From: a virus
Lineage: Duplodnaviria > Heunggongvirae > Uroviricota > Caudoviricetes
IMG/VR virus record: IMGVR_UViG_2531839662_000028
Span: 1-19,466 of that record
DNA length: 19,466 bases
Strand: one strand, 5' to 3'
Under the pieces are notes generated by a model. The model did no database searches, was not told the DNA's origin, and saw nothing but the letters and a program-made list of their open reading frames with translations. A program made the position numbers and the translations under genes. Of this stretch, positions 1 through 15,978 are shown in pieces (the stretch's first letter is position 1; every line of letters begins with the position of its first letter).

Positions 1-510
1 TTATACGGATTTTTTTACATCTTGTGGATCCTGTGAAGGAGCTACAAGATCTTCCTGTTCATGAACGCCATAGATTGACAAAATCTCTTTGCGAGCTTCT
101 GAGGGTAATGTATGTAGCACCAAAGCTGTTTGTAGCGTTTGGCGATCAATGCCCAACATTGCCAATAGGGTATCAGCAGATATAGGGGGGCGTTCATGCA
201 TTAACCCGGAAAGCCCGTATTTAGCCATATTCAGCTCTATTTCCCGGACTTCATTTTCTCCTAATTTATTGATTAATATGGAGAACATCTTCAATGTATC
301 AGCATTCATTTCTTCGATAGACGTTCCCTGCATAGCTGGTATTACCGGGAGATACTCAACCCCAGGCCCACGACGCCCTTCTTGCGAACGCTTAGGCCAT
401 CCTTCTTTCTTCGCTCGTTTGTGCACGCCTTGTATTGTTCCTGGCATTCCGTCCAGTTCAGTAATTTGTTTGGGCGTCATCCACTGGTTTATCTCTCTTG
501 AACTTTTCAT
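1..510 (-). CDS. c: Mu-type immunity repressor (Repc-like), 169 aa
   Basis: Minus-strand ORF with start codon (CAT on +) at 508-510 and stop at 1-3. N-terminus MKS...GMPG..GVH.RA..GW.KR...G..EY matches the Mu repressor DNA-binding domain pattern and visibly parallels the N-terminus of the adjacent transposase. Divergent from ner/A/B as in Mu; AT-rich. Confidence 0.85.
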   Translation of the reverse strand: MKSSREINQWMTPKQITELDGMPGTIQGVHKRAKKEGWPKRSQEGRRGPGVEYLPVIPAMQGTSIEEMNADTLKMFSILINKLGENEVREIELNMAKYGLSGLMHERPPISADTLLAMLGIDRQTLQTALVLHTLPSEARKEILSIYGVHEQEDLVAPSQDPQDVKKSV

Positions 511-541
511 AAACTAAGTTTACCAAAATTATATGTATATA

Positions 542-554
542 AATCAAAGTGTTA
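542..554. promoter_or_regulatory. Candidate IHF-binding site (matches WATCAANNNNTTR)
   Basis: Sequence AATCAAAGTGTTA fits the IHF consensus exactly. In Mu an IHF site lies between operators O1 and O2 in this interval. Consensus match only. Confidence 0.4.
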
Positions 555-618
555 CAAAATAAATCACACCAACTCATATAAACTAGTTGAGTTTATTTGG
601 TTTATGTGACAATGTATA

Positions 619-648
619 AAACAGATAATCAAGACAGATTATCTGTTT
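619..648. promoter_or_regulatory. Perfect 12-bp inverted repeat AAACAGATAATC-(6)-GATTATCTGTTT, candidate operator for a dimeric regulator (Ner or repressor)
   Basis: Read directly from sequence. Lies about 45 bp upstream of the ner start, in the position where Ner/repressor operators lie in Mu-family phages. Confidence 0.5.
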
Positions 649-690
649 TGATAACCCTTTATCATACGCAATATGGTTGATGTGTGAAAG

Positions 691-927
691 ATGAGTAACG
701 ATTGGCATCGGGCTGACGTGATTGCGGCCCTCAAAAAAACAGGAATCCCTCTGGCAAAACTGTCCAGACGTTCAGGTTATTCAACCGGGACACTCGCAAA
801 TGCATTAGTCAGGCCATGGCCCAAAGGTGAACGTATCATTGCTGATGCCTTAAACATGAAACCTGAAGAAATTTGGCCTAGTAGATATCTAAGGGATCAC
901 AATGAGAGAGTGGATATCAGCAATTGA
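691..927 (+). CDS. ner: Ner-like DNA-binding early regulator, 78 aa
   Basis: Small ORF directly downstream of the operator region. Residues [13 protein letters not shown]...TLANAL...WPKGE.IIA.AL...PE.IWPSRY match the Ner family pattern; first gene of the rightward early operon as in Mu. Confidence 0.8.
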
Positions 928-2890
928 GTGTGCGGGTTTATCTGGTTTACCTGGTTCATTAATGGGGATTCACAAAAGGGCACAGAGAGAAGGATGGCTC
1001 AAGAGAAGAAGAGAAGGAATTAAAGGGGTTGCTTATGAATACCATATATCTTCTCTTCCTAACTCTGCCCGAGCTGAGTTTTTGATCCAACAAGGGGGAA
1101 TTGAAACAAGCCTGGGCCGTTTTGAAATCGCCCGCCCCACGCTGGAAGCCCATGATTATGATCGTGAGGCACTGTGGAGCAAATGGGATAACGCCAGCGA
1201 TTCCCAGCGCAGACTTGCTGAAAAATGGTTGCCTGCGGTTCAGGCTGCAGACGAAATGCTGAACCAGGGGATTTCAACGAAAACGGCATTTGCGACCGTT
1301 GCTGGACATTACCAGGTCAGCGCATCCACTTTGCGGGACAAATATTACCAGGTACAGAAGTTTGCGAAGTCTGACTGGGCGGCTGCGCTTGTTGATGGCC
1401 GTGGTGCATCCCGTCGCAACGTTCACAAAAGTGAATTTGACGAGGATGCCTGGCAGTTTCTGATTGCAGATTATCTGCGACCGGAAAAACCCGCCTTTCG
1501 CAAATGTTATGAGCGTCTGGAACTGGCAGCACGTGAGCATGACTGGAATATTCCCTCCCGTGCCACGGCCTTTCGCCGGATTCAGCAACTGGACGAGGCA
1601 ATGGTTGTTGCCTGCCGTGAAGGTGAACATGCACTGATGCATCTGATACCGGCACAGCAACGAACTGTGGAACACCTGGACGCCATGCAGTGGATCAACG
1701 GCGACGGTTATCTGCATAACGTCTTTGTACGCTGGTTTAACGGTGATGTGATCCGCCCGAAAACATGGTTCTGGCAGGATGTGAAAACCCGAAAAATTCT
1801 GGGCTGGCGCTGCGATGTGAGCGAGAACATTGATTCAATTCGCCTCTCGTTCATGGATGTTGTGACTCGCTACGGTATCCCGGAGGATTTTCACATCACC
1901 ATTGATAACACCCGTGGTGCAGCGAATAAATGGCTGACGGGAGGCGCGCCCAATCGTTACCGCTTTAAGGTAAAAGAGGACGATCCAAAGGGACTGTTTT
2001 TACTGATGGGCGCGAAAATGCACTGGACAAGCGTTGTTGCCGGTAAAGGCTGGGGCCAGGCAAAACCTGTTGAACGTGCTTTCGGTGTTGGTGGGCTTGA
2101 GGAATACGTTGATAAGCATCCGGCACTGGCTGGCGCATATACGGGGCCAAATCCGCAGGCAAAACCTGATAACTATGGCGACCGCGCTGTTGATGCAGAG
2201 CTGTTTCTGAAAACCCTTGCCGAAGGTGTGGCGATGTTCAATGCCAGAACAGGCCGTGAAACAGAAATGTGCGGGGGCAAACTCTCGTTTGATGATGTTT
2301 TCGAGCGTGAATACGCCAGAACGATTGTGCGTAAGCCAACCGAAGAACAAAAACGGATGCTGTTACTGCCTGCCGAGGCGGTGAACGTTTCACGCAAAGG
2401 CGAGTTTACGCTTAAAGTTGGCGGCTCCCTTAAAGGCGCGAAAAACGTTTATTACAACATGGCGTTAATGAATGCCGGCGTGAAAAAAGTTGTGGTCAGG
2501 TTTGATCCACAGCAGTTACACAGCACGGTTTATTGTTACACCCTGGACGGTCGGTTTATCTGTGAAGCGGAATGTCTGGCACCTGTTGCATTTAATGATG
2601 CTGCGGCAGGCCGCGAATATCGCCGCCGCCAGAAACAACTGAAATCTGCAACTAAAGCAGCCATTAAGGCGCAGAAACAAATGGACGCACTGGAAGTTGC
2701 TGAACTGCTGCCGCAGATAGCCGAACCAGCAGCGCCAGAATCAAGGGTTGTTGGTATTTTCCGGCCTTCCGGTAACACGGTGCAGGTGAAATACCAGGAA
2801 CCCGATGATGAATATGAAACTGATCGTGATGAATATCTGAATCATTCGCTGGATATTCTGGAACAGAACAGACGTAAAAAAGCCATTTAA
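902..2890 (+). CDS. A: Mu-type DDE transposase A, 662 aa
   Basis: Length and order (c-ner-A-B) as in Mu. N-terminal winged-helix domain resembles the repressor N-terminus. Catalytic triad candidates in Mu-equivalent positions: D268 (codon GAC 1703-1705, INGDGY), D335 (TIDNTRG), E391 (KPVERAF). Start overlaps ner end; AAGGGA lies 7 nt upstream of the ATG. Confidence 0.95.
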
Positions 2891-2928
2891 TTAACGTTTA
2901 AACAAAATTTAATTACGAGGTTATTCAG

Positions 2929-3867
2929 ATGAATATTTCCGATATTCGCGCAGGACTGCGCACGCTTGTAGAAAGTGAAAAAGCGACTTATGCACAAATT
3001 GCACGCGAGTCTGGCGTGGCCGCAGGAACGTTAAGCGCATTCGTGAATAACAAGTACAACGGCGACAATGAACGTGTTGCGCAGACGCTGGAACGCTGGC
3101 TGGAGAACTATCACCGTGCCGCAGAGCTGCCAGAACCACCACGTTTTGTGGAAACCAGAACAGCACGCCAAATCTGGACGAGTATGCGTTTTGCCAGCCT
3201 GACTGAAAGTATTTCTGTTATCTGCGGTAATCCAGGTGTGGGAAAAACTGAAGCGGCCCGCGAATTTCGTCGCACCAATAACAATGTCTGGATGATCACC
3301 ATTACCCCATCCTGTGCCAGTGTTCTGGAATGCCTGACTGAACTGGCTTATGAACTGGGAATGAATGACGCACCACGCCGTAAGGGGCCACTCTCCCGCG
3401 CTTTGAGACGCCGTCTTGAAGGTACGCAGGGGCTGGTCATTATCGACGAAGCTGATCATCTTGGCGCTGAGGTTCTGGAAGAACTCCGCCTGTTACAGGA
3501 GTCCGCCCGTATTGGCCTTGTTCTGATGGGGAATCACCGTGTTTATTCAAACATGACCGGTGGTAACAGAACGGTTGAATTTGCCCGCCTGTTTTCCCGT
3601 ATTGCCAAACGGACGGCAATCAATAAAACCAAAATTGATGATGTAAAAGCCATTGCGGATGCCTGGCAAATTACCGGCGAAAACGAGCGGGAATTATTAC
3701 AGCAGATTGCACAAAAGCCAGGTGCGCTTCGCATCCTGAACCACTCGCTGCGCCTTGCTGCCATGACCGCCCACGGTAAAGGTGAACGTGTTAATGAAGA
3801 TTATCTGCGTCAGGCTTTCCGTGAATTAGACCTCGACGTTGATATTTCAACCCTGCTGCGCACGTAA
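2929..3867 (+). CDS. B: Mu B-type transposition target-DNA activator (AAA+ ATPase), 312 aa
   Basis: 312 aa, immediately downstream of A. Walker A motif GNPGVGKT and a Walker B-like LVIIDEAD are read directly in the translation. Confidence 0.93.
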
Positions 3868-3880
3868 GGAGAGCGAAATC

Positions 3881-4108
3881 ATGATGTCACGGAATATCAA
3901 AATGGCAACGGAAGTAAAGAGCTGGTTACAGGAGCGCGGCAGCCACGTCAACGAATCCTGGCTGGGCGTGGCCCGCCCGGTGCTTGAAATTACCTGCCCG
4001 CCACCGGAGCTGGTCAGAAACGCTGTCAGGATTATGGAGCATAAATCAGGGGTTGCCCGTTCCGTATGGACGGCCCGCCTTAATGGTTGCCAGATTATCT
4101 GGCGTTAA
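3881..4108 (+). CDS. Small early protein in the kil position (Kil-like), 75 aa
   Basis: First ORF after B, as for Mu kil. AGGAG at 3867-3871 precedes the ATG at 3881; the track's longer ORF from 3839 overlaps the B coding end and is less likely. Function assigned by position only. Confidence 0.55.
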
Positions 4109-4140
4109 TAACGGCTTATTTATTTGTGAGGAATAACAAA

Positions 4141-4410
4141 ATGGCAAAAGTAATCTTTGAATTTAACCGCATGGAAGATGTTGAGTTTCAGAAAAAAGGA
4201 GGTTTCTTTGTAGGAATGAGTGTGCAACTGGAAGAACAGTCTCCTAAGGAGCAAACCGGACCGCATGACGTGATGGCAGGCATTATCAAGAGCATGGCTC
4301 CTGAAATTATTGAAAAAGCAACCCAGGAGTTGTTGAAGTCAGCCAGAGAACTTGGGCTGGAAGCCGAAGGCGAGTTATTCCGGTATAACCCGGATGCAGC
4401 CAAACATTAA
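4141..4410 (+). CDS. Hypothetical early protein, 89 aa, acidic
   Basis: ORF with GAGGA-type RBS upstream of the ATG at 4141; the track's longer ORF from 4087 lacks an RBS. Within the semi-essential early block. Confidence 0.55.
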   Translation: MAKVIFEFNRMEDVEFQKKGGFFVGMSVQLEEQSPKEQTGPHDVMAGIIKSMAPEIIEKATQELLKSARELGLEAEGELFRYNPDAAKH

Positions 4411-4427
4411 TTTCAGGGAAGGAGGCA

Positions 4428-4717
4428 TGATGATAATCCCTCGCAAAAGATGGTCACGCGAAGACCGGGAATTTATCGAAGCCAGTGTCGGGAAAATGAC
4501 CGTCGAGGAAATGGCGAAAAAACTGAACGTTGCCCCAACCGCCCTACAGGCACATGCCAGAAGGCACGGAATATCGTTGTGTGCATACCGGGTCAGTGAG
4601 CACGACAAATATTTGTGTCGTGAACTTTATAAAGAAGGGCTGGCTATTCATGTCATTGCCCAAAAGATGGAATTAAGCAATCGTGCTGTATCCAGCATTG
4701 TATACAGCGAATATTAA
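4428..4717 (+). CDS. Hypothetical small protein with helix-turn-helix-like segments, 96 aa
   Basis: GGAAGGAGG RBS at 4417-4425 immediately upstream of the ATG at 4428. Segments MTVEEMAKKLNVAPTALQAHARRHGIS and IHVIAQKMELSNRAV look HTH-like. Confidence 0.55.
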
Positions 4718-4737
4718 TTAACAGGAGCTTTATTTAT

Positions 4738-5262
4738 ATGGCTAAACCAGCAAAACGAATCAAGAGTGCCGCAGCAGCTTATGTTCCGCAATCCCGCGAT
4801 GCCGTGGTGTGTGATATTCGCCGGATTGGTGACCTGCAACGCGAAGCGGCACGACTTGAAACGGAAATGAATGACGCTATCGCTGAAATTACTGAGAAAT
4901 ACGCCTCACAGATTGCGCCCCTTAAAACCAGTATTGAAACCCTTTCAAAAGGCGTTCAGGGATGGTGTGAAGCGAACCGCGACGAACTGACGAACGGCGG
5001 CAAGGTGAAGACGGCGAACCTGGTAACCGGCGATGTGTCATGGCGTCAGCGCCCACCATCGGTAAGTATTCGCGGTGTGGATGCGGTGATGGAAACGCTG
5101 GAGCGTCTTGGCCTGCAACGCTTTATTCGCACGAAACAGGAAATCAACAAGGAAGCGATTTTACTGGAACCGAAAGCAGTCGCAGGTGTCGCCGGAATTA
5201 CAGTTAAATCAGGCATTGAAGATTTTTCTATTATTCCGTTTGAACAGGAAGCCGGTATTTAA
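4738..5262 (+). CDS. gam: Gam-like host-nuclease inhibitor / DNA-end binding protein, 174 aa
   Basis: 174 aa, the Mu Gam length. Translation MAKPAKRIKSAAAAYVPQ...WCEANRDELTNGGKVKTANLVTGDVSWR matches my recollection of Mu Gam. AGGAG at 4721-4725. Confidence 0.88.
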   Translation: MAKPAKRIKSAAAAYVPQSRDAVVCDIRRIGDLQREAARLETEMNDAIAEITEKYASQIAPLKTSIETLSKGVQGWCEANRDELTNGGKVKTANLVTGDVSWRQRPPSVSIRGVDAVMETLERLGLQRFIRTKQEINKEAILLEPKAVAGVAGITVKSGIEDFSIIPFEQEAGI

Positions 5263-5304
5263 TACCACCATTAATATTTAATTAGTTCACTTTCTTTTAA
5301 TTAT

Positions 5305-5334
5305 GGCGCGATGCGTCAGGGGATTGCTCGCGCC
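5305..5334 (+). other. GC-rich hairpin (GGCGCGA / TCGCGCC, 16-nt loop) in the gam-downstream spacer, no T-tract
   Basis: Inverted repeat read directly from sequence in the 98-bp gap. Could be an RNA processing/stability element or protein site; not a canonical intrinsic terminator. Confidence 0.3.
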
Positions 5335-5360
5335 TGAAACAGATTACTGAGGAATAAAAA

Positions 5361-5903
5361 ATGGTTGATGCAAAAGTTCTGAATGGTGTCAGCACATTAT
5401 TACGGGCTTACGGGCGTCTGACCTGCGGGGTTCTGGCTGAAAAAATGAATATGCTGCCCTCGTCAATGGTGTATTTCCTGCGTGATGCGGTTGATGCCGG
5501 AGTTCTCACTGAATGTAACGGATTTTATGACGTTCCGCGCCCTCGTCCAACGCCGCCAGTAAGACGAAACGCAACAACGGAACACCCCGCTGTTGATAAT
5601 GCTCAATGGTGCGCGTTCCGCCGCTCTTTGCCCTGGCTGGAAGGCAATGCCATTCCGGCATTGGCAAAAGAATTTGCGACAGGCGTACTGACCTGCGAGT
5701 CGGTTTACATCGTTGCTGAAGTGGATGACGAGATGTGCAAACAGGGGATGCCCCGTTTTGTGATGGCGTATATCGATATCCGGCTGGGGCGCTTTATTTG
5801 TGGTTCCAGTGGCTGGAATATCACCGACCACGTCATGCGCTATCTCATTCTTGATTATTCACCAGCTCCGGCAGCAACACAGGAAGTCAGTGAACATGAT
5901 TAA
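5361..5903 (+). CDS. Hypothetical early protein, 180 aa
   Basis: ORF with GAGGA RBS (5349-5353) 7 nt upstream of the ATG; enterobacterial-type codon usage; no recognisable catalytic motif. Confidence 0.6.
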   Translation: MVDAKVLNGVSTLLRAYGRLTCGVLAEKMNMLPSSMVYFLRDAVDAGVLTECNGFYDVPRPRPTPPVRRNATTEHPAVDNAQWCAFRRSLPWLEGNAIPALAKEFATGVLTCESVYIVAEVDDEMCKQGMPRFVMAYIDIRLGRFICGSSGWNITDHVMRYLILDYSPAPAATQEVSEHD

Positions 5904-6078
5904 GTCAATTGGCTTTGTCCTGCTGGTTGGCACCTGCGGGAGTGATGCCTGTGATGCTATCCCGGCAACAGAAAAAATCTGGCCCACAGAGCAGGCATGT
6001 ATGCAGGTGATGGAGCGCATACAAAAACGTTATCCCAGTGGAATCTTTTATTGCGAAGAGGTATTACGAAATGAGTAA
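5896..6078 (+). CDS. Small predicted secreted or lipoprotein-like protein with four cysteines, 60 aa
   Basis: Internal ATG at 5896 overlaps the stop of the preceding gene. N-terminus MIKSIGFVLLVGTCGSD resembles a signal peptide with a non-canonical lipobox-like LVGTC. Confidence 0.45.
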   Translation: MIKSIGFVLLVGTCGSDACDAIPATEKIWPTEQACMQVMERIQKRYPSGIFYCEEVLRNE

Positions 6079-6433
6079 GCATATTTATTACGACCCTAAA
6101 TATCGGGCTGAAATGCGGGCGCAACTGGTTGTCAGTGGATATACACCGGAGCAGGCCGATACAACTCTGACAGAACTGATGGGTGAGCTTCCATTTGATG
6201 AAGCTGAATATGAATACTGGCTGAAGCAGTTCAGGCTGGAAATTCTGGAAAACACCACACTGCCATCGCTGATAAGAATAATAAAAAGCGTTATCGACAA
6301 TGCCTGCTACAACGGTGATTGCTTGGCCGCAGCAATTGCGACCCATGCTCTGGTGAATCTGCTGGAGGTTACCGGCGCAGTTTTCCTGAATCCTGAAAAG
6401 GTATTAAGAGATGAAAATACAGATGATTACTGA
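6071..6433 (+). CDS. Hypothetical acidic small protein, 120 aa
   Basis: ATG at 6071 overlaps the preceding stop. AT-rich relative to flanking genes; D+E clearly exceeds K+R. No recognisable motif. Confidence 0.55.
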   Translation: MSKHIYYDPKYRAEMRAQLVVSGYTPEQADTTLTELMGELPFDEAEYEYWLKQFRLEILENTTLPSLIRIIKSVIDNACYNGDCLAAAIATHALVNLLEVTGAVFLNPEKVLRDENTDDY

Positions 6434-6746
6434 TGCTGATTTAATGGCTGCAACCTTAATTTCCAGTGGCATGTCAGAACAAAAGGTAAATGATTTCCTG
6501 GATAATGTCGTATACCAGCACTATGAGCAGGCCAGAGAAAATTTAATTTCAGAAAAGCGCACGATGATTGCTGAATCATTAAGCCCTGCATGGATTATCG
6601 AAGAGTTGCGGGGAATCATTGCCAGTCAGGATAAAGTGGCGGCAGTTGCCGCCCTTGATGTGCTACAGCGAATGAGTAAAGAGCTATTCAACACTGAATT
6701 AATTTTAAAATCCGGGGGACATAATGAATCGCACATCCCTGATTAA
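6411..6746 (+). CDS. Hypothetical acidic small protein, 111 aa
   Basis: ORF overlapping both neighbours by ~23 nt; AT-rich; about 20 acidic versus 10 basic residues. Confidence 0.55.
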   Translation: MKIQMITDADLMAATLISSGMSEQKVNDFLDNVVYQHYEQARENLISEKRTMIAESLSPAWIIEELRGIIASQDKVAAVAALDVLQRMSKELFNTELILKSGGHNESHIPD

Positions 6747-7275
6747 ATTAATTCATGTTGCACGTCGGGAGTTGCAACTTGACGATGACACTTACCGCGC
6801 TTTTCTGGTGCAGTGCACGGGCAAAACCAGTTGTCGCGAGCTGTCCGTTGCACAACTGGAACAAGTGCTCGATGCCATGAAAGAGCGCGGTTTTAAGAAA
6901 CAGAAAAAATATCCCCGCCGTCGTTTTAAGGGGCATGTCACACCACGCGAGAAGATTTACAAAATCTGGCAGCAGATGTTTCTTGACGGTTTCGTCTCCG
7001 ATATCAGCGACGCTGCGCTGGACAAATACGTTGAGCGCCTGACAGCCAGACGTAATGGCGGACAGGGTGTTTCCACGCTGGCATGGTGTCACGGGGAATC
7101 GTTGCAGGTTGTGCTTGAAACGCTCAAACAGTGGCATATGCGCTGCATCCGTGAAGCCTTTGCCCGACATGGTGTGCCTTTACCTGTGAGCGAAACCGGG
7201 CGGGAGCTGCGCGGCTATGATGCACTGACCAGTGCGTATGCCCGCGCACGAAACAGCGGGAGAATTGCTGTATGA
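6724..7275 (+). CDS. gemA: GemA-like gene expression modulator (DUF1018-type), 183 aa
   Basis: 183 aa, directly upstream of and overlapping mor (ATGA overlap) as in Mu. Translation MNRTSLIKLIHVARRELQLDDDTYRAF... fits the GemA family pattern as I recall it. Confidence 0.8.
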   Translation: MNRTSLIKLIHVARRELQLDDDTYRAFLVQCTGKTSCRELSVAQLEQVLDAMKERGFKKQKKYPRRRFKGHVTPREKIYKIWQQMFLDGFVSDISDAALDKYVERLTARRNGGQGVSTLAWCHGESLQVVLETLKQWHMRCIREAFARHGVPLPVSETGRELRGYDALTSAYARARNSGRIAV

Positions 7276-7682
7276 AACAGATGAAAGAGCAGGATTTATT
7301 CGAAGACTTCCGGGACGACAGCGTTCTGGAATATCTTCACGATTATCAGGAAAAATATGTTTACCCGGCGCTACTTTCAGAACTGAATGCTCTGTTGCGA
7401 CAGGAACTGATAAGGCTTGGGGTTAACCCGGTCCATTCCCTTGAGTTGGTAGTGGCGATTTGTAATCATATCGGTGGGATTCAGGTATATGTTCCTAAAG
7501 GGAAAATACTGGAAAATCTTATCAGAGACATGCGCATCTGGCGTGATTTTGATGGGAAAAACGTAGCGGAACTGGTGCAGCGTTACAAAGTGACATACAA
7601 AACGGTATATCAAGCTATCAAAAGAATGCGAAGGCTGGAGCGTGGAAAATATCAAATGCAACTGTTTAAGGATGAGTCATGA
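7272..7682 (+). CDS. mor: Mor/C-family transcription activator (Mor by synteny), 136 aa
   Basis: Acidic N-terminus and C-terminal HTH (...NVAELVQRYKVTYKTVYQAIKRMRR...) typical of Mor/C activators. Position immediately after gemA. Confidence 0.85.
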   Translation: MKQMKEQDLFEDFRDDSVLEYLHDYQEKYVYPALLSELNALLRQELIRLGVNPVHSLELVVAICNHIGGIQVYVPKGKILENLIRDMRIWRDFDGKNVAELVQRYKVTYKTVYQAIKRMRRLERGKYQMQLFKDES

Positions 7683-8158
7683 AATACTTTCCTCTTATAC
7701 TTTTACTGAGCGTATTTTGCGCTAATGCGGCAAAGTTGCCAGCTGAAGATGTCATCAAAAAACGTCTGACAGAAAAAGATCTCATTGCACTAAATAGCTG
7801 GAAGCCTCTTAAGGGAGGCGATTCTATTAAGAACGGTGGAACTGAAACTGCTCACAGCAAATTCGGGGTATTTACGATCAATAATAAAGTCGTCAGCTCA
7901 AGGACGACGGTAAAGGATTTTGAAAACAATCCTTCAGGTGTGTTGTCTTCCTTTGTAGCATGCTCGCGGGTTGCAGAGTCAGCAATTGGTGAACTAACAG
8001 AGAAGCAGCAGAAACGAATTATTGACATGGTAGTTTCAGCTACAAAAGTTGAAGGGTATGGGTTAACTGACGTGATACAGGGTTTTCTCATGCAAACCAA
8101 ATTTCTCAAGATGGGTAACGATATGGTAATAGATTGCTCCATCAAAGGAGATGAGTAG
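7679..8158 (+). CDS. Secreted protein of unknown function, 159 aa (moron-like cargo)
   Basis: N-terminal signal peptide MKYFPLILLLSVFCANAA. Visibly lower GC than flanking genes. ATGA overlap with the mor stop; followed by a strong intrinsic terminator. Confidence 0.7.
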   Translation: MKYFPLILLLSVFCANAAKLPAEDVIKKRLTEKDLIALNSWKPLKGGDSIKNGGTETAHSKFGVFTINNKVVSSRTTVKDFENNPSGVLSSFVACSRVAESAIGELTEKQQKRIIDMVVSATKVEGYGLTDVIQGFLMQTKFLKMGNDMVIDCSIKGDE

Positions 8159-8177
8159 TTATCTTCCCTTAATTCAA

Positions 8178-8203
8178 TGAAGCCGGTAAATCCGGCTTTT
8201 TTT
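8178..8203 (+). terminator. Intrinsic terminator-like hairpin + T7 tract (TGAAGCCGG-TAAAT-CCGGCTTTTTTT), copy 1 of a repeated element
   Basis: 7-bp GC-rich stem, 5-nt loop, seven Ts, 20 nt after the stop of the secreted-protein gene and 56 nt before the endolysin start. Identical 26-mer recurs at 15904-15929. Confidence 0.65.
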
Positions 8204-8258
8204 ATGCCTCCGGCACCATGAAGCAGACCACGTTTAACTCTGCTTCACAGGTGTTTTT

Positions 8259-8846
8259 ATGGAAAATCAAAAATTCTCCCCGGCCTTTGAACATGCGCTG
8301 AATTTTATTCTGCGTCCTGATATCGAAGGCGTTTATGTCAATGACCCCACTGACCGTGGCGGTGAAACCAAATACGGCATTTCTGACCGCCGCGACGGTG
8401 TGATTGACGGCAAAACCGATGTCAGCGGTGACGGCAAACCGGATACCCGCATCAAAGATTTAACCCGCGAACAGGTCGCGCAGATTTACTGGCGCGATTA
8501 CTGGCTGCCTGCCGGATGTGACCAGTGGCCTGATGGCGTGGCGATGTTTGTTTTCGATGCAGCGGTTCAGCATGGCGTTAAAAAAGCCATCAAAATTTTG
8601 CAGGAAGCCACTGATATCAATGCCGATGGCATCATCGGCCCGCGCACCCGCAGGGCCGTGAACCTGGCTGACCAGAACTGGTTGCTGACCCGCTGTATTG
8701 TCCGTCGTTCCCGCTTTTATGCCGAAATCATCAAATCAAAACCCGCCCAGGGCAAATACCTGAACGGCTGGTTTAACCGCATGGAAAAACTGACCGACGC
8801 CTGTCTGGAAATCATCGACAACGCGCCGTCCACCACGCGGGGGTGA
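8259..8846 (+). CDS. Endolysin, GH108-type muramidase with C-terminal peptidoglycan-binding domain, 195 aa
   Basis: N-terminal motif EGVYVNDPTDRGGETKYGI matches the GH108 signature; C-terminal DGIIGPRT resembles the peptidoglycan-binding module. No signal peptide or TM segment. Confidence 0.85.
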   Translation: MENQKFSPAFEHALNFILRPDIEGVYVNDPTDRGGETKYGISDRRDGVIDGKTDVSGDGKPDTRIKDLTREQVAQIYWRDYWLPAGCDQWPDGVAMFVFDAAVQHGVKKAIKILQEATDINADGIIGPRTRRAVNLADQNWLLTRCIVRRSRFYAEIIKSKPAQGKYLNGWFNRMEKLTDACLEIIDNAPSTTRG

Positions 8847-8847
8847 T

Positions 8848-9099
8848 ATGGGCAAAGGCTGGGATGCCTCACTGAAAGCCGGGCGGCGTGACCGCCTGCG
8901 TCAGGAGGTTCTGCACCGCATGGCCGGAGGTCCGTCCCCGAAACCGCTGGACTATACCGGCCATGACGGCACACACGCCAGCTACTACATGCGTGGCTGG
9001 AACTCCGTGGATACACGGGACATTTTCTGGCAGTGCCAGAAGTACAGGGAAAAATTCAATGTGGAAAAAGGTAATGAACAAAATTTTAAAACTGTGTGA
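8848..9099 (+). CDS. Hypothetical basic protein in lysis cassette, 83 aa
   Basis: ATG 2 nt after the endolysin stop; good enterobacterial codon usage (CTG, GCC, AAA) through most of the ORF; no TM segment. Confidence 0.45.
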   Translation: MGKGWDASLKAGRRDRLRQEVLHRMAGGPSPKPLDYTGHDGTHASYYMRGWNSVDTRDIFWQCQKYREKFNVEKGNEQNFKTV

Positions 9100-9484
9100 C
9101 TGGCTGCTTTGTTCCCGACTGATGAGAACCCCATGGCCGCTGGCCGGACTGACACTCTGCATGTTCATCATCAGCATGTTATGTGGCTGGCGATCGTTCG
9201 TGTTGATGTTGTTGTCCTTTGCCGGGGTGGTGTTGTTTTCATACAGCGCAAGCCTCGGGAATGTGCCATTTCGCCTGCTGCCTGAGGTCCGTTACCGGGC
9301 TTTTGGTCGCCACATCATCGTGTGGTCATGGGTGGTCTGGGCGCTGGGATATTTCTGCTGCGTCTTCAGCACGCTGATGATGGTGTCACCGGTGCATCCG
9401 GTGTTCTGGCTGTGTGGTGGCTGTTGCGGCGGTCTGCTCTGTCTTCAGCGTTATCTGTATGGAGGTTTCCCGTGGATCCGTTAA
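9059..9484 (+). CDS. Multi-pass membrane protein (about four TM segments), Cys/Trp-rich; candidate holin, 142 aa
   Basis: Only + frame covering 9100-9470 with host-like codon usage. Hydrophobic segments PWPLAGLTLCMFIISMLCGW, FVLMLLSFAGVVLFSY, IIVWSWVVWALGYFCCVF, VFWLCGGCCGGLLCL. Start at internal ATG 9059 (AGGGA upstream) chosen because the upstream part of the track ORF overlaps the better-supported frame-1 gene. Confidence 0.55.
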   Translation: MWKKVMNKILKLCDWLLCSRLMRTPWPLAGLTLCMFIISMLCGWRSFVLMLLSFAGVVLFSYSASLGNVPFRLLPEVRYRAFGRHIIVWSWVVWALGYFCCVFSTLMMVSPVHPVFWLCGGCCGGLLCLQRYLYGGFPWIR

Positions 9485-10080
9485 CCCTTTCAGGCATCGC
9501 CTCTGTTCTGCTGAAAGCCGGGCCGGGGCTGATTCGTTCCGTCGGGCGCTGGTTTGGTGGCAGTACATCTGCCGCCGCTGACTCGGTGGCCGGTATGGTG
9601 GAAAGCGTCCGGGAAAGCCTTCCCGTTGCTGAACAGCAACGCATTCTGGAACAAAAACTGGTGATGCTGTCACCGGAGCAACTGGTGCAACTGGAAACCC
9701 TGAAAATTCAGCTGCAACAGCTGGAGGTGGAACGGCAGAAGCTGGTGCTGGCTGACCAGCAGGCCGCACACCACGAACAGCAGGAAACCATCCGCAATGG
9801 TGACAACGCCACGGACAGCTATGTGCGCCAGACACGCCCGCTGCTGGCCCGCCTTTCCTGTTACAGCAGTCTGGCCTATGTGCTGTTGCTCTCCTGCGGC
9901 CAGATTGCCGGAGCCATTGCCGGTGCCAGAGGTATCACGCTGCATATGCCATCACCGGACTGGGATATCACGCTGATGTTGCTTACCCCGGCGCTGGGCT
10001 ATCTCGGTGTAAGAACCCTTGACGGCTTTGCCCGTTACAGCAAATCAAGCCGTCACAAAATGTCTGCGGGGCCGAAATGA
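9472..10080 (+). CDS. Membrane-associated coiled-coil protein, lysis-associated candidate (spanin- or holin-like), 202 aa
   Basis: GTG start at 9472 preceded by GGAGG (9462-9466). Hydrophobic N-terminus, Q/E/L-rich coiled-coil middle, C-terminal hydrophobic segments. Confidence 0.5.
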   Translation: MDPLTLSGIASVLLKAGPGLIRSVGRWFGGSTSAAADSVAGMVESVRESLPVAEQQRILEQKLVMLSPEQLVQLETLKIQLQQLEVERQKLVLADQQAAHHEQQETIRNGDNATDSYVRQTRPLLARLSCYSSLAYVLLLSCGQIAGAIAGARGITLHMPSPDWDITLMLLTPALGYLGVRTLDGFARYSKSSRHKMSAGPK

Positions 10081-10304
10081 CCGACGAAATCGATCGCATC
10101 AGTGAAGTGGTTCTGAACGAGCGTCAGAGCGTCGTTAAAGCCTGGCAGACACGGACAAAAGAAACGCCCCACAGCCGGGGCTTCTGCAATGACTGCGGGA
10201 ACGTTATTCCGGCACAGCGCCTTGCGGCGCTGCCGGATGTGGTGACCTGTATTGACTGTCAGCAGATGCGGGAACGCAGGAGGAAAACGTGTCCTGGGAA
10301 ATGA
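10077..10304 (+). CDS. TraR/DksA-family C4 zinc-finger protein, 75 aa
   Basis: CxxC-x16-CxxC arrangement (CNDCGN...CIDCQ) in a ~75-aa protein, characteristic of TraR/DksA-like zinc fingers. ATGA overlap with the preceding gene. Confidence 0.75.
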   Translation: MTDEIDRISEVVLNERQSVVKAWQTRTKETPHSRGFCNDCGNVIPAQRLAALPDVVTCIDCQQMRERRRKTCPGK

Positions 10305-10594
10305 TCAGAGCCAACTGGCCCATTCTGTGGGCATTGCTGATGACAGGAATAAACCTGCTTCAGTTGATTCTGGCAAAGACCTACGTCAAGCGCGAAGAGT
10401 TTGATTTGCTGCGTTCCCGCGTGTCGGTGATGGAAAGCCAGGTACATCAGCTACCTGATCGTGATGAGTTCCACCGCCTGCAACTGGATATCAGCAACCT
10501 GCGGGGAGAAATCAAAGAGCTGGGGCCATCCATCCGCCAGGTATCCCGCATCAGCGATTTGTTATTAGAGAACGAGTTAAAGGAAAAAAATTAA
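10289..10594 (+). CDS. Small membrane-anchored coiled-coil protein (Mu gp25-like by position), 101 aa
   Basis: GTG start at 10289 preceded by AGGAGG (10278-10283). One N-terminal TM segment (WPILWALLMTGINLLQLIL) followed by a coiled coil. Confidence 0.6.
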   Translation: MSWEMIRANWPILWALLMTGINLLQLILAKTYVKREEFDLLRSRVSVMESQVHQLPDRDEFHRLQLDISNLRGEIKELGPSIRQVSRISDLLLENELKEKN

Positions 10595-10887
10595 TGGCGA
10601 TGAAAGAGATCCTCACTGAAGACCGTCGTCTGGTGTTGCTGCGTTCCCTGCTGGATTGTGGCGACAGTGCGAATGAATCCGTGTTGCAGACCTGCCTTCA
10701 GGCCTACGGTCATAAGGTATCCCGTGATGTGGTGCGCACCCAGCTTGCATGGCTGCGCGAGCAGGGGCTGGTTCGTCTGTCTGATGTGGGCGGCTGTTAC
10801 GTGGCTGAAATCACCGGCAGCGGCGAGGATGTGGCAAACGGCCTGTCCAGCGTTCCGGGCGTTAAAAAACCCCGTGCGAGGGACTGA
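10594..10887 (+). CDS. Hypothetical protein, 97 aa
   Basis: ORF with ATG overlapping the preceding TAA; host-like codon usage; part of the co-directional late block before terminase. Confidence 0.6.
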   Translation: MAMKEILTEDRRLVLLRSLLDCGDSANESVLQTCLQAYGHKVSRDVVRTQLAWLREQGLVRLSDVGGCYVAEITGSGEDVANGLSSVPGVKKPRARD

Positions 10888-10889
10888 GC

Positions 10890-11189
10890 ATGGCCCGAAA
10901 ACTGAAGCCGTTAAGTCGCGGAGAACGGGCCGTCGTGCGGCAACTGGCGTACTGCCTTGTGCTGGCAGATATTGAGCAAAACGCCATTGTCCGTGCATAC
11001 GAACAACAGACCGGAAAGCCCTGGAACCCGGATGCACCGGATACCCCCATGAAACGTGCCCTGCGTTCATCACCGGCATGTGCGCGGCTGTGGAAGCTGC
11101 TGGGTAAGGATATCCGCTCCGTTCGCGAAGAAATATACGCCGGTCTGAAAACACCGGGAACTGAAGACGGGGGCCGTCGTGAACCGTAA
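10890..11189 (+). CDS. Hypothetical protein, 99 aa
   Basis: ORF with GAGGGA RBS 8 nt upstream of the ATG; host-like codon usage. Confidence 0.6.
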   Translation: MARKLKPLSRGERAVVRQLAYCLVLADIEQNAIVRAYEQQTGKPWNPDAPDTPMKRALRSSPACARLWKLLGKDIRSVREEIYAGLKTPGTEDGGRREP

Positions 11190-11326
11190 AAAGAATCCGA
11201 TAAGTAAAGCGTCCCGTGATGAACTCCGCCGTCTGGCGCACAACCTGACATGGCGGGAAATCCAGAGCGGCGCACTGAAATCTGCATACGAAAGTTTACA
11301 GCGTAGTGAGCAACAGGAGGGCACAC

Positions 11327-11908
11327 ATGGAAAATGAACAACGCCCCACCCGTGGCCGTCTTTCCAAAGTGGATTTACTCCCGGACAGCATCCGGGAGCA
11401 GTTGCATCAGATGCTGCGGGAAAAGCGGCACACGCAGGAAGAAATCCGCGAAGCCATCAACGCCCTGATTGACGAACACAACCTGCCGGAAGAGATGCAG
11501 TTAAGCCGGACGGGCTTAAACCGCTATGCCATCCGCATGGAAAAAGTCGGGGCAAAAATCCGTGCCTCCCGCGAAATGGCCGAAGTCTGGGCGGCAAAGC
11601 TGGGTTCCGCGCCGACGTCAGACGTCGGCAAACTGCTGATGGAGTTTGTAAAAACGCTGGCTTTTGAAACGTCCATGTCGATGGCAGAAGACGACAAGCC
11701 CGTTGCACCGAAGGCGCTGGGGCAACTGGCGCTGGTTGCCCAGCGTCTGGAAGCGGCAGCCATGACCAGCCATAAACGCGAGAAAGCGATCCGTGATGCG
11801 TTTGCGCAGGAGATGGCAGAGAAAACCGAAGAACTGGTCAGAACGGGCGGTCTGTCAGGCGGTGCGGCTGACACCATCAAACGAGACATTCTGGGGATTA
11901 GCGTATGA
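11327..11908 (+). CDS. Terminase small subunit-like protein (Mu gp27 position), 193 aa
   Basis: Immediately upstream of and overlapping the large terminase. AGGAGG at 11315-11320 supports the ATG at 11327 rather than the track's upstream start at 11306 (GTG). Confidence 0.65.
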   Translation: MENEQRPTRGRLSKVDLLPDSIREQLHQMLREKRHTQEEIREAINALIDEHNLPEEMQLSRTGLNRYAIRMEKVGAKIRASREMAEVWAAKLGSAPTSDVGKLLMEFVKTLAFETSMSMAEDDKPVAPKALGQLALVAQRLEAAAMTSHKREKAIRDAFAQEMAEKTEELVRTGGLSGGAADTIKRDILGISV

Positions 11909-13440
11909 CACAAATGGATACGTTCAGTGAATATGATGTTCTGCTGCCGTATCAGAAACGCTGGGTGGCGGATGATGCCGACCTGAAAATTGCCGAGAAA
12001 TCCCGCCGTACCGGTTTAACCTGGGCGGAAGCGGCGGATGCGGCACTGACGGCATCACTGAAGAAGGAAGACGGCGGGCGCGATCACTTTTATATCGGTT
12101 CGAATAAGGAGATGGCCCGCGAATTTATCGACGCCGTGGCGATGTGGGCGAAAGCGTTTAATGCGGCAGCGGAAGAAATCTGCGAGGAAGTGATCACCGA
12201 CGAAGACAAGGACATTCTGACGTTCGTCGTGTACTTCGCCAGCGGTTTTAAGGTCAAGGCATTGTCCAGCAACCCGAGCAACATTCGCGGGATGCAGGGG
12301 AATGTCACCATCGACGAGGCCGCGTTCCATGAAAAACTGGACGAGCTGCTGAAGGCTGTGCTGCCGCTGAAAACATGGGGCGGCAAAATTCGCCTTATTT
12401 CCACCCATGACGGCGTGGACAACCTGTTTAACCAGCTGATTCAGGAAAGCCGCGCGGGCAAAAAAGATTACAGCATTCACACCATCACGCTGGATGACGC
12501 CTGCAATGACGGGCTGTACCGGCGTATCTGTCAGGTGCGCGGCATGGTGTGGTCACCGGAAGCCGAAGCGGAATGGAAAGAAGGTCTGCTGCGAAATACC
12601 GCCACCCGCGAAGACGCACTGGAAGAATATTACTGCGTCCCGAAAAACGGCGGCGGCACGTATATCCCCCGCTCACTGCGTGAACGTGCGGCCCGTGGCA
12701 CCGGGAAAGTGTTGCGCTTTACCGGCACACCGGAATTTAACGCACTGACGGAAAGCCAGCGCCGGGCAGATATCCGGGAATGGCTGGAAACAGTGGTGCG
12801 CCCTGAACTGGAAAAACTCCCGAAGAACCTGCGCCACTGTCTGGGGGAAGACTTTGCGCGTTCGGGTGACCTGACCGTACTGGCCCCGGTGACGGTGAAC
12901 GATGACACCACCCGCGAGGTGCCGTTTCTGGTTGAGCTTGGCAATGTGCCGTTTAAACAGCAGGAGCAGGTGCTGTTCTGGCTTTGCGATCGTCTGCCCC
13001 GCCGTGACGGCATCAAAATGGATGCGCGGGGGAATGGTCAGTATCTGGCAGAACAGGCGGCGGAGCGGTACGGCGACGAAGTGGAACAGGTGATGCTGTC
13101 CGTGGCGTTCTACCGCGAAAACATGCCCCGTTTCCGTGCGGCGTTTGAAGATGATGAGCTGATCCTTCCGAAGCATGAAGACGTGATCAATGACCTCGGG
13201 GCCATTCAGTTACTGCGTGGCGTTCCCGGCATTGATGATTCACGAACCCGTGGCAGCGACGGTCACAAACGTCACGGCGACGCCGCTGTGGCCATTTTCC
13301 TGGGCTTCCTGGCCAGCAAGGATGACTGCCACCGTTACGAACTGCACCGCCTGAACCGCCCGGCGAAACCGGAAGAACGCAACGCGCGCCGCCAGATGAA
13401 GCTGACGCGCGGCCTGAAAAATGAGGGAGGTTTACTGTGA
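11905..13440 (+). CDS. Terminase large subunit (Mu gp28-like), 511 aa
   Basis: 511-aa protein between small terminase and portal; overall resemblance to Mu-like large terminases; ATGA overlap with the upstream gene. Confidence 0.88.
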   Translation: MTQMDTFSEYDVLLPYQKRWVADDADLKIAEKSRRTGLTWAEAADAALTASLKKEDGGRDHFYIGSNKEMAREFIDAVAMWAKAFNAAAEEICEEVITDEDKDILTFVVYFASGFKVKALSSNPSNIRGMQGNVTIDEAAFHEKLDELLKAVLPLKTWGGKIRLISTHDGVDNLFNQLIQESRAGKKDYSIHTITLDDACNDGLYRRICQVRGMVWSPEAEAEWKEGLLRNTATREDALEEYYCVPKNGGGTYIPRSLRERAARGTGKVLRFTGTPEFNALTESQRRADIREWLETVVRPELEKLPKNLRHCLGEDFARSGDLTVLAPVTVNDDTTREVPFLVELGNVPFKQQEQVLFWLCDRLPRRDGIKMDARGNGQYLAEQAAERYGDEVEQVMLSVAFYRENMPRFRAAFEDDELILPKHEDVINDLGAIQLLRGVPGIDDSRTRGSDGHKRHGDAAVAIFLGFLASKDDCHRYELHRLNRPAKPEERNARRQMKLTRGLKNEGGLL

Positions 13441-15008
13441 ACCTGAAACAACTGGCCGGGGCCGTTCGCCGTCTGCTGAACCCGGCAACCGGTGAGGAAG
13501 ACACACTGAAAAAAGAGGCGCTCAACGAAGCACAGGCCCGTCCGCGTCATGCCGGTGTGCGTTCGGCCTCGCCGGGTATCAGCGTCGCCTCCGGGCTGAA
13601 CCCCGGCAGGCTGGCAGGCATTCTGCGCAATGCCGCCGACGGCATCACACGTGATTTTTTTATCCTTGCTGAAGAGATGGAAGAACGCGATTTGCATTAC
13701 GCCTCGGTGCTGCGCACCCGCAAGCTGACGGTGGCGGGTATCGAACCGGTGGTGGTGGCCGCCAGTGATGACGATGCTGACGTGCAACTGGCGGACGCCA
13801 TCCGTGCGCTGATGGAAGCCCCGCAAATCCCTGAGCTGATGTTTGATTTGCTCGACGGGCTGGGAAAAGGCGTGGCGGTCTGTGAAATCCTGTGGGACAC
13901 CCGCAACAACCACTGGATGCCCCGTGATTATGAATGGGTTGATCCCCGTTTTCTGAAAGCCGAAAAACCCACGCTGCACCAGTTCCGCCTGCTGACTGAC
14001 GATGAACCGGTGGATGGCGTACCGCTGACACCGGGAAAATTCATTGTTCACCAGCCGCGCCTGAAATCCGGTCTGCCGTTGCGTAACGGTCTGGCCCGTC
14101 TGGTGGCGGTGATGTACATGCTGAAATCCTTTACCGTGCGCGACTGGTGGGCATTCGCGGAAAAATTTGGCATTCCGGTCACGGTGGGGAAATACGGTCC
14201 CAACGCCACGGAGGAGCAAATCCGCGTACTGATTGATGCGATTGCCTCCATTGCCTCGGATGCCGGGTGTGCCATTCCGCAGTCCATGCAACTGGAAATG
14301 AAGGAAACCGCCAGCAGGAATAACGGCGGCGCACTGTTCCGTGAAATGGCGGAATGGTGTGATGCACAAATCAGTAAGGCTGTGCTGGGGCAGACCATGA
14401 CCACGGATAACGGCAGTTCGCGTTCACAGGCGGACGTGCACAATCAGGTGCGCATGGACATTGTGCGCTGGGACGCGCGGCAGCTGGCTAACACGCTGAA
14501 TGAATATCTGGTACGCCCCTACATTGAGGCCAACTACGGGCCACAGGCGCACTACCCCCGTGTTGTTCTGCGTATCAGTGAAGCGGAAGATTTGAAGGCG
14601 CTGACAGACGCTCTGGTGCCACTGATTGACCGGGGGATGCGGGTTCAGGAATCGGAGCTGCGGGACCGGTTCGGCCTGGCTGAACCGGACGACGGGGCTG
14701 ATGTTCTGCATCCGGTGTCTGCCGGAATGTCAGGTGATATGGCGATGAACCGCGAGCGCGTCGCCCTGAACCGTGAACACCCCGATGAACTGGCACAGAT
14801 GGTGGATGATGCCCTGCGTGACTGGCAGAAAACCGGCGAGGCGTTCACGAACCCGGTGCTGACACTGGCGCAGGAATGCGACAGTTTTGATGACTTTCTG
14901 AAACGTCTGCCTGAGCTTCAGGAAACGCTGAACGCGGACGACTTTGCCCTGCAACTGGCGGAGGTGTGCTTTAAGGCGCGTGTGCTGGGGGACACTGCTC
15001 ATGCGTGA
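13437..15008 (+). CDS. H: Portal protein (Mu gp29/H-like, DUF935-type), 523 aa
   Basis: 523-aa protein following terminase. GTG start at 13437 preceded by GAGGGAGG (13423-13430), overlapping the terminase stop. Confidence 0.85.
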   Translation: MNLKQLAGAVRRLLNPATGEEDTLKKEALNEAQARPRHAGVRSASPGISVASGLNPGRLAGILRNAADGITRDFFILAEEMEERDLHYASVLRTRKLTVAGIEPVVVAASDDDADVQLADAIRALMEAPQIPELMFDLLDGLGKGVAVCEILWDTRNNHWMPRDYEWVDPRFLKAEKPTLHQFRLLTDDEPVDGVPLTPGKFIVHQPRLKSGLPLRNGLARLVAVMYMLKSFTVRDWWAFAEKFGIPVTVGKYGPNATEEQIRVLIDAIASIASDAGCAIPQSMQLEMKETASRNNGGALFREMAEWCDAQISKAVLGQTMTTDNGSSRSQADVHNQVRMDIVRWDARQLANTLNEYLVRPYIEANYGPQAHYPRVVLRISEAEDLKALTDALVPLIDRGMRVQESELRDRFGLAEPDDGADVLHPVSAGMSGDMAMNRERVALNREHPDELAQMVDDALRDWQKTGEAFTNPVLTLAQECDSFDDFLKRLPELQETLNADDFALQLAEVCFKARVLGDTAHA

Positions 15009-15765: not shown

Positions 15766-15788
15766 CCCTCCCGCCGTAAATCCCCCTG

Positions 15789-15812
15789 AAACGCATCAGA
15801 AACGCGTTTTTT
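15789..15812 (+). terminator. Intrinsic terminator candidate after F (AAACGC-atcagaaac-GCGTTT followed by T-run)
   Basis: 6-bp stem, 9-nt loop, then TTTTTT, about 25 nt after the F stop; overlaps a larger imperfect palindrome TCAGAA...TTCTGA. Confidence 0.5.
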
Positions 15813-15840
15813 ATTCTGATGGCGTGAATGTGCATTCTGA

Positions 15841-15882: not shown

Positions 15883-15903
15883 GGGGTATTTCCCCGTTTT
15901 CAG

Positions 15904-15929: not shown

Positions 15930-15978
15930 CTGCCTTCCGCATACTGACCGTCGGTAACCCCAAACGACGGAGACTGAC

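Follow-up and report, generated by a model that had tools for sequence, protein, structure and literature searches.

The stretch of DNA analysed here, referred to as the window, comprises 19,466 nucleotides (nt) of a tailed virus (positions 1 to 19,466 of IMG/VR record IMGVR_UViG_2531839662_000028; 53.2% GC). The Pfam assignment of its genes shows it to be the left-hand 19.5 kb of a transposable prophage of the Mu type. Its lytic programme is best read as a two-tier cascade in which a single activator of the Mor type, the product of the mor gene, would directly fire the late operons, a reading to which we give a probability of about 0.75. The evidence that carries it is the presence of one Mor/C-family gene only, and of promoters related to the Mor-dependent middle promoter of phage Mu, Pm, at the starts of the late operons. 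Relatives are designated by locus codes where needed: L001 is the prophage of Escherichia coli UMNF18, L003 Yersinia phage vB_YpM_5, L004 the prophage of ETEC1703 and L063 Klebsiella phage Kp4866-3 (OK490420.1, an unverified record).

The mor product (136 amino acids, aa) matches, besides the Pfam family given in Table 1, the late transcriptional activator family phrog_532 (E 1.3e-39), and shares 59% identity with Mu Mor and 31% with Mu C. Members of the Mor/C family are small (about 100-150 aa), their N-terminal half being acidic and their C-terminal half basic (PMC2582627). Window Mor has the same size and charge distribution, with 12 acidic and 6 basic residues in its N half and 8 acidic and 16 basic residues in its C half. 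The invariant residues of the family linker G-G-x-Q-x-Y-x-P-x-G, located between the dimerisation domain and the C-terminal helix-turn-helix (HTH) domain, are all found in GGIQVYVPKG at residues 68-77. The HTH region aligns with those of both Mor and C, and its recognition region, VTYKTVYQAIKRMRR, is Mor-like (Mu Mor, VTFNTVYKAIRRMRR; Mu C, LSQPQIYQIIARQRK) and constant across the C-less group except for a K/Q exchange. The F/Y and N/K differences from Mu Mor accompany an A-to-G change at position 4 of the binding box described below, and we infer that the two may be linked. Sliding-clamp-binding motifs, Qx[D/E][L/M]F at the N-terminus and QPDLF at the C-terminus, are reported to be carried by Mor/MuC family members, Mu Mor having the N-terminal DLF alone (PMC12867686, 2026). 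Window Mor carries EQDLF at residues 6-10 and QMQLF at residues 128-132, the latter being QPDLF in close relatives, while the C-terminal end reads QPDLF in MuC and QPSLL in Mu Mor. In having both clamp-binding-like motifs window Mor thus appears to resemble MuC.

A second activator was searched for among stop-to-stop open reading frames (ORFs) of at least 30 aa in all six frames, using two Mor/C hidden Markov models (HMMs) and phmmer with Mu Mor, Mu C and the window protein as queries. Every query gave exactly one Mor/C match in the window (E 1e-14 to 1e-90) and no second one, the next best E value being at least 0.4, in agreement with the first-pass annotation, a reading of the letters that had seen no second Mor/C ORF there. 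The same search recovered two strong matches, Mor and C, in both Mu and vB_YpM_5 and is therefore able to see a C gene. Extended beyond the window, as that annotation had proposed, it revealed no second Mor/C ORF in the complete prophages L001 and L004 including their flanks (one each, in agreement with the RefSeq annotation), in any of 10 loci from Raoultella, Pluralibacter, Serratia, Klebsiella, Kluyvera and Brenneria covering 10 kb on either side of mor (L005-L014, one each), or in the whole genome of Kp4866-3. No Mor/C gene at all was found in 45 IMG/VR loci (L018-L062) centred on the baseplate gene V, which cover the right arms of relatives. The window, L001, L004, L005-L014 and L063 thus lack the C paralogue within a Mor-dependent operon that characterises the three-tier cascade of Mu.

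The first-pass annotation had offered two explanations for this gene content, namely a single Mor/C-type activator driving the late genes or a C gene lying outside the window. The window does stop at 19466, and some E. coli genomes hold several Mu-like places, from which it could be argued that C is supplied in trans, either by the rest of the prophage or by another Mu-type prophage in the host, with the phage depending on it. A C gene outside the window is however very unlikely, because the whole prophages matching the window at 99.2% and 97.7% identity each contain just one Mor/C ORF over their full length and none of the 45 right-arm loci has C. The C-less layout also recurs in at least six other genera, and the boxes present at the late-operon starts are of the Mor type, with no strict TTAT-N5-6-ATAA match at these starts in L004, so that supply of C in trans is scarcely credible. 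With one Mor/C ORF and Mor boxes at the late operons, the evidence favours the single-activator branch.

To locate the presumed target of Mor, the numbering of Mu Pm was used, in which GTAAAC occupies positions -57 to -52 (PMC4390567 Table 3) and the Mor element the 16 bp from -51 to -36 (PMC4287176). Since GTAAAC fixes this numbering on the Mu sequence, the Mu dyad is placed at Mu 9173-9188, AGTAAAGCCGGTTAAT (AGTAA-AGCCGG-TTAAT), with the -10 hexamer TATCCT at +38 from the box start and +1 at 9224. The GenBank record of Mu gives the middle promoter at 9163-9233 with a terminator, 9179-9200, nested inside it. Window positions 8164-8258 (TTCAATGAAGCCGGTAAATCCGGCTTTTTTTATGCCTCCGGCACCATG) align with Mu Pm without gaps. 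The box found there, Mor box 1, agrees with the Mu box at 13 of 16 positions and the stretch from box to -10 at 32 of 44 (gapless), while the best match elsewhere on the plus strand of the window, apart from the site at 15902, reaches 23 of 44. Judged from this homology, 8164-8258 is a homologue of Mu Pm. Both window boxes have two 5-bp arms around a G/C-rich hexamer at the place of -51 to -36, the promoter-proximal half, TWAAT, being the well-conserved one, and both are followed at +38, as in Pm, by a -10 (CACCAT and CATACT) in the absence of a -35. No sigma-70 consensus promoter was called in 7000-8400 or in 15500-18000, which fits activator dependence of both intergenic regions. The post-mor cassette is kept in 11 loci from other genera of which the flanks have diverged, with CAnnAT or CAnAcT as its -10.

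The likeness to Mu at this site extends to the gemA-mor synteny, the 59% identity of the activators with a shared recognition helix core TVY-AI-RMRR, a box centred 43.5 bp upstream of the start (here predicted) and overlapping the early terminator, a -10 located 22 nt past the box, and a homologue of gp18, the first gene of the Mu middle operon, downstream. On the other hand, Mu has one box and a short operon making C, whereas boxes stand at two operon starts within the window, and at one more in complete relatives, and are predicted to drive lysis, packaging, head and tail genes directly. The box itself has G here and A in Mu at position 4, and A or T at position 13. A low-GC gene stands between mor and terminator here and none in Mu. 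The first-pass annotation had read the region as mor followed by a low-GC secreted ORF, a terminator and an endolysin gene. That order is borne out by the PF08765 match, a signal-peptide-like N-terminus at 41% GC, the hairpin and the GH108 domain, the endolysin ATG at 8259 being 55 nt past the T-run of the terminator. The accompanying claim that the Mu middle operon had been lost does not stand, as Pm is retained in register and the gp18 homologue follows the endolysin gene. On these two grounds the phage keeps its middle promoter together with the start of the middle operon, and the missing part is only the C tier with its C-type late promoters. The Mu genes without counterpart here are gp19, gp20, C, Plys, the signal-arrest-release (SAR) endolysin, gp23 and gp24, and in their place are found the GH108 endolysin gene, two unknown ORFs and a TraR-like gene.

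The cassette is found a second time upstream of head gene I. Copies 1 and 2 form a 52-nt direct repeat of 85% identity and share the exact 25-mer GAAGCCGGTAAATCCGGCTTTTTTT at 8179 and 15905, with 0 expected by chance, and from box to -10 copy 2 matches Mu Pm at 34 of 44 positions. In relatives, the -10 of the head promoter is CATACT, CACACT or GACACT. The hairpin and T-run reported as a terminator by the first-pass annotation are indeed present after ORF159, but the same DNA is also a homologue of the Mor-binding site of Mu and is repeated at 15890-15941. A consensus, ARKGAARSCGGTWAAT, was built from the lys and I sites of all relatives and used with at most one mismatch to scan the 46-kb L004 locus, yielding three matches against 0.02 expected, all on the plus strand. 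They are located before lys, before I and inside V, each with a -10-like hexamer at +38 or +39. The third box (L004 29293, outside the window) lies within the baseplate V gene, the gp45 homologue, with TATTAT at +39. Kp4866-3 has the same three sites as L004, while Mu and vB_YpM_5, both with C, have one box, at Pm. The number of boxes therefore tracks C, with one in the C-bearing Mu and vB_YpM_5 versus three in the C-less L004 and L063.

Both cassettes score as hairpin plus T-run terminators in the terminator scan, and neither is followed by a sigma-70 consensus promoter. They could on this account be terminators or insulators only, the late genes being reached by read-through or antitermination from the early promoter and the target of Mor being elsewhere. 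This is highly improbable in view of what relatives conserve. Before I, the hairpin 3' arm and the T-run have disappeared from relatives L006-L011, L014 and L063, which nevertheless retain the 16-nt box with its -10 at the fixed spacing of 38-39 nt. The third box lies within coding sequence and has no hairpin. Its GGG, NCG and AAT codons never change at the third position in 29 unique sequences from 44 loci, even though NCG specifies any of T, S, A, R and K, and none of the 45 codons flanking the box shows such constancy. Moreover, the cassette is in register with Mu Pm, whose Mor dependence is experimentally established. Since the box and its -10 are kept where the hairpin decays before I, and since the hairpin-less V box is under synonymous constraint, the conserved functional element would be the box with its -10 and not the terminator.

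Table 1. Features of the window with their positions, strand and supporting evidence.
Feature	Position	Strand	Evidence or remark
Repressor	1-510	minus	Pfam
ner, transposase A, transposase B, gam, gp11 C-terminal domain	listed after repressor and before gemA		Pfam
gemA, Mu gp16 homologue, next-to-last conserved early-operon gene	6724-7275	+	PF06252 GemA, E 1.3e-32; 81% aa identity to Mu GemA
mor, sole Mor/C-family activator gene	7272-7682	+	PF08765, E 1.6e-29, 102.5 bits (cut-off 24.9)
ORF159, low-GC exported protein	7679-8158	+	159 aa; GC 41.0% vs 53.2% for the window; upstream of early terminator
Cassette copy 1, 52-nt terminator/Mor-box, Mu Pm homologue	8164-8215	+	direct repeat D1
Mor box 1 (putative), AATGAAGCCGGTAAAT = AATGA-AGCCGG-TAAAT	8176-8191	+	corresponds to Mu Pm -51 to -36
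Intrinsic terminator of the early operon: stem of 8 bp, loop of 5 nt, T7	8179-8203	+	terminator scan; overlaps Mor box 1
Predicted -10 CACCAT, lysis/packaging promoter; predicted start ~8227; no -35	8214-8219	+	offset as Mu TATCCT
Endolysin GH108 + PG_binding_3, first gene of Pm-type operon	8259-8846	+	PF05838 E 9.6e-24; PF09374 E 8.6e-18; phrog_315
Mu gp18 homologue (first Mu middle-operon gene)	8848-9099	+	69% aa identity, tblastn; DNA match to D108/Mu gene 18
TraR/DksA-type C4 zinc-finger gene, lysis-packaging operon	10077-10304	+	PF01258 E 7.2e-11; phrog_54
DUF2730 (Mu gp25), gp27, large terminase, Mu portal, F	listed after TraR/DksA gene and before protease I		Pfam
Cassette copy 2, upstream of head gene I	15890-15941	+	direct repeat D1
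Mor box 2 (putative), AGTGAAGCCGGTAAAT = AGTGA-AGCCGG-TAAAT	15902-15917	+	14/16 vs Mu box
Predicted -10 CATACT, head-operon promoter; predicted start ~15953	15940-15945	+	offset +38, as Mu Pm
Head protease/scaffold gene I, first of head operon	15979-16941	+	PF10123 Mu-like_Pro, E 5.4e-45
Major head protein T	downstream of I		Pfam

In the cascade proposed, early transcription would run from the left end through gemA, mor and ORF159 and stop at the 8179-8203 hairpin. Mor would accumulate meanwhile and bind the box at 8176-8191, that is, the DNA of the 5' arm and loop of this hairpin, and recruit sigma-70 RNA polymerase to the -35-less promoter with its -10 at 8214-8219. The lysis promoter would then transcribe the endolysin gene and the gp18 homologue along with the rest of the lysis genes and those for packaging, until the cassette at 15890-15945 ends the lysis-packaging operon and restarts transcription at head gene I. 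The V-internal box would start the distal tail operon. One Mor protein would thereby do the jobs split between Mor and C in Mu, with neither a C gene nor C-type boxes being needed. The delay that Mu gains from making C would be absent, and the timing of lysis would presumably be set by the holin system.

Repeats were observed on both sides of these promoters. At 15842-15882, just upstream of the head-promoter Mor box, there are three close direct repeats GTTTT(T)GAAG; relatives have repeated GTTTAAACG motifs at the equivalent place and TTAAACGTTTC ahead of the V-internal box. These could be UP-element-like or accessory-factor sites. An inverted repeat is also found directly after the -10 of every Pm-type promoter, that of Mu included (8220-8247 and 15946-15972 in the window; L002-L015). 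Its stems of 7-10 bp vary in sequence by locus, with modest z-scores of -0.2 to -3.8 over the 12 promoters folded. The 5' arm being upstream of the predicted +1, this repeat would form only in read-through transcripts or act at the DNA level.

The operon boundaries concerned (lysis, head gene I, baseplate/tail, com-mom) are those of the C-dependent late promoters of Mu, which likewise have a dyad box in place of the -35 and a terminator overlapping the next promoter. The differences are the absence of a C gene here, Mor-type boxes instead of TTAT-N5-6-ATAA, and the location of the third box inside the gp45 (V) homologue and not upstream of P. The strict TTAT-N5-6-ATAA pattern, which does find Pmom in Mu, is absent from the upstream regions of lys, I, tail and mom in L004, a test of limited sensitivity since a strict pattern misses imperfect C boxes.

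The proposed scheme does not account for the com-mom operon. In Mu, mom requires C. The complete relatives L001 and L004 have com and mom at the right end, and the region upstream (L004 36564-36686; L001 32983-33105) contains an inverted repeat with perfect 10-bp arms, GACGATCGAT...ATCGATCGTC, which includes several GATC sites and resembles the Dam/OxyR region of Mu, together with a conserved block GATTAAATACCCCCAGCCCTCCGGGC, also given as GATTAAATACCCCCAGC, and TTATTAC as the likely -10. No Mu C box was found in this region of the relatives, and only a half-site-like ATTAA beside a C-rich block is conserved at the promoter. Possible inputs at the mom promoter are a half-site, a further factor, and transcripts reading through from the tail-fibre operon.

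Several points weigh against a single activator for all late operons. The com-mom promoter of the relatives has a -10 but no Mor box, in either orientation or at any sensible spacing, and at least one late-type promoter falls outside the Mor-box scheme. Mor and C of Mu are strictly promoter-specific (PMC4287176). The assignment of all late promoters to one protein follows from the likeness of their boxes, which are alike at three promoters but not at mom. The arm-to-arm symmetry of the window boxes is weak (3 of 5 positions between half-sites). Because the lys and I sites supplied the consensus, the evidence independent of it consists only of the V site and the contrast between Mu, vB_YpM_5 and Kp4866-3. 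The window ends at 19466, so that the right arm of the source genome is represented by near-identical relatives. Finally, what has been observed is which genes are present, that a second paralogue is absent, and that the boxes are conserved, homologous to the experimentally defined Mu Pm and in register with it; Mor binding, activation and starts near 8227 and 15953 are predicted from homology and conservation.

A three-tier cascade might also have been kept with a second activator from outside the Mor/C family, Mor switching on the first operon (8259 on) and the TraR/DksA-like protein, or the product of a small unknown ORF, the head, tail and mom genes. The TraR/DksA-like gene is indeed kept in all C-less relatives (L004-L014) with no match in Mu or vB_YpM_5, it lies in the first Mor-box operon roughly where Mu has C and its lysis genes, and another input is plausible at the mom promoter of the relatives, which lacks a Mor box. 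The I and V promoters, however, bear the same Mor box as lys (0-1 mismatch) with the same -10 offset, and therefore need no different DNA-binding activator, and neither Pfam nor PHROGs revealed another HTH or activator family among the ORFs of 8848-11189. Proteins of the TraR/DksA type work by way of the RNA polymerase secondary channel, without recognition of any DNA sequence. The TraR/DksA-like protein as a replacement for C was consequently rejected as the main explanation on account of the Mor boxes at I and V, and a second activator of this sort is improbable overall; the protein is probably a modulator of host RNA polymerase.

A single Mor/C gene is the usual state among phages that carry the family. 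Of 50,697 phage records searched by tblastn with window Mor, 54 have a homologue and 40 of these have it at one place, including phages of Vibrio, Burkholderia, Shewanella, Pseudomonas, Pasteurella and Klebsiella. Two places occur only in 14 Muvirus records, among them Mu, D108, SfMu, Mu_3F6, PhiR68_1 and five Yersinia vB_YpM phages. The first-pass annotation was correct in that there is no C gene, but its idea of a loss finds no support, the window having the majority state, and the Mor and C pair of Mu may be the derived one. It is conceivable, though doubtful, that the two-tier design with one activator is ancestral, the Mor to C relay having arisen by duplication of the activator and drift of the late boxes, with the cassette as a portable unit copied from one operon boundary to another, as the 52-nt repeat in the window suggests, and mom being served by an undescribed mode or factor.

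This arrangement is common among Mu relatives and was already noted for phages of Pasteurellaceae. In 3927AP2, phiMhaMu2 and SuMu, lys (GH108 + PG_binding_3) lies immediately 3' of mor and C is lacking, what replaces it needing study (PMC4553209); the gene list of SuMu likewise has Mor and no C. The window shares with these phages (SuMu, Mannheimia 3927AP2 and phiMhaMu2) the single mor followed by a GH108 + PG_binding_3 lysis gene and the absence of C, with one accessory ORF in between. It differs from them in host family and sequence, and 3927AP2 is without the com-mom found in the complete relatives of the window. The contribution of the present analysis is the finding of Pm-type promoters at late operon starts. 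Mor-box late promoters would answer what replaces C in the enterobacterial lineage, and an analogous dyad is seen in Pasteurella phage AFS-2018a. This phage has a single Mor/C gene and a 5+6+5 dyad of its own, TTTAAAGCGCTTTAAA (TTTAA-AGCGCT-TTAAA), recurring before the lysis gene, before the I homologue and before the baseplate genes, and is an independent lineage with the same logic and its own box.

Closer to the window, Kp4866-3 and prophages of E. coli, Salmonella, Raoultella, Serratia, Kluyvera and Brenneria have the same module, in the order mor, low-GC envelope ORF, Mor box/terminator, GH108 lys, gp18-like, TraR-like, gp25-terL, portal, Mor box and I, except that the ORF after mor is sometimes of the ~107-aa multi-transmembrane type and the box before I is often without hairpin. 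Phage vB_YpM_5 (L003 14193-16201) is a hybrid with Pm, a GH108 endolysin gene (73% identical to that of the window), gp18, C, Plys and a Mu-type lysozyme gene. Its possession of both lysin types and both activators suggests recombination between the Mu-type and the C-less lineage at Pm. By analogy only, Ogr/Delta of P2/P4 offers a similar logic, one small activator acting on a dyad upstream of several -35-less late promoters with all late operons on together. The zinc-finger Ogr is however unrelated to the HTH proteins Mor and C, and there is no overlap of box and terminator.

For annotation, these observations correct a Mu-centred reading in which something essential would have been lost, and the absence of C from a Mu-like prophage should not be taken as a defect; the window would instead represent a common and simpler wiring of transposable phages, with one Mor-type activator and several Pm-type promoters. 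Exact coordinates that can be tested are available for the boxes, -10 hexamers and predicted starts. Mu with one box, the C-less phages with three and the Pasteurella phage with its own dyad at the same three places also provide comparison sets for activator specificity and co-evolution with the box. The practical gain is modest, since descriptions existed already of the family, of the promoter type and of the C-less layout.

The interval between mor and the early terminator is occupied by ORF159, whose start overlaps the mor stop (ATGA), so that its translation is coupled to that of mor. Its N-terminus is signal-peptide-like (MKYFPLILLLSVFCANA/AKLP). ORF159 has no match in Pfam and belongs to phrog_38744, a family of unknown function; its homologues form 6 clusters only, all at least 73% identical and unnamed, and the AlphaFold2 model is unusable (mean predicted local distance difference test score, pLDDT, of 53.7). 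The first-pass annotation considered it a cargo ORF. A low-GC ORF is indeed present, but it is no accident of this copy, as a single low-GC (32-41%) gene for an envelope protein occupies the equivalent of 7683-8175 in all C-less relatives examined (L004-L015 and L063). The ORFs are either of ~160-171 aa with a signal peptide or anchor (the ORF159 class, distantly inter-related) or of ~107 aa with several transmembrane segments. In Mu and vB_YpM_5, mor and the Mor box are separated by a 2-nt gap with no gene. The early operon thus seems to end in a slot dedicated to accessory genes.

Relatives of the window occur in ~100 of 5426 complete E. coli genomes. The best complete-genome match is the UMNF18 prophage, inserted in yphC (99.2% over 1-17870). 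In this copy a deletion (L001 21160-21837; window ~17870 onward) starts shortly past the major head gene T and reaches into the gene of the tail sheath; frameshifts affect two of the baseplate genes. It is therefore defective, and the intact relative ETEC1703, at 97.7% identity, was used as the stand-in for a complete prophage. Past ~17870, the window has intact head-completion ORFs, unlike the UMNF18 copy. An Rfam scan of the window matched no family. Directly 3' of T, at 17860-17915, an inverted repeat CAGTTAAAAGG...CCTTTTAACTG is followed by CCTTTTAAAAGG and may be a partial terminator setting capsid stoichiometry.

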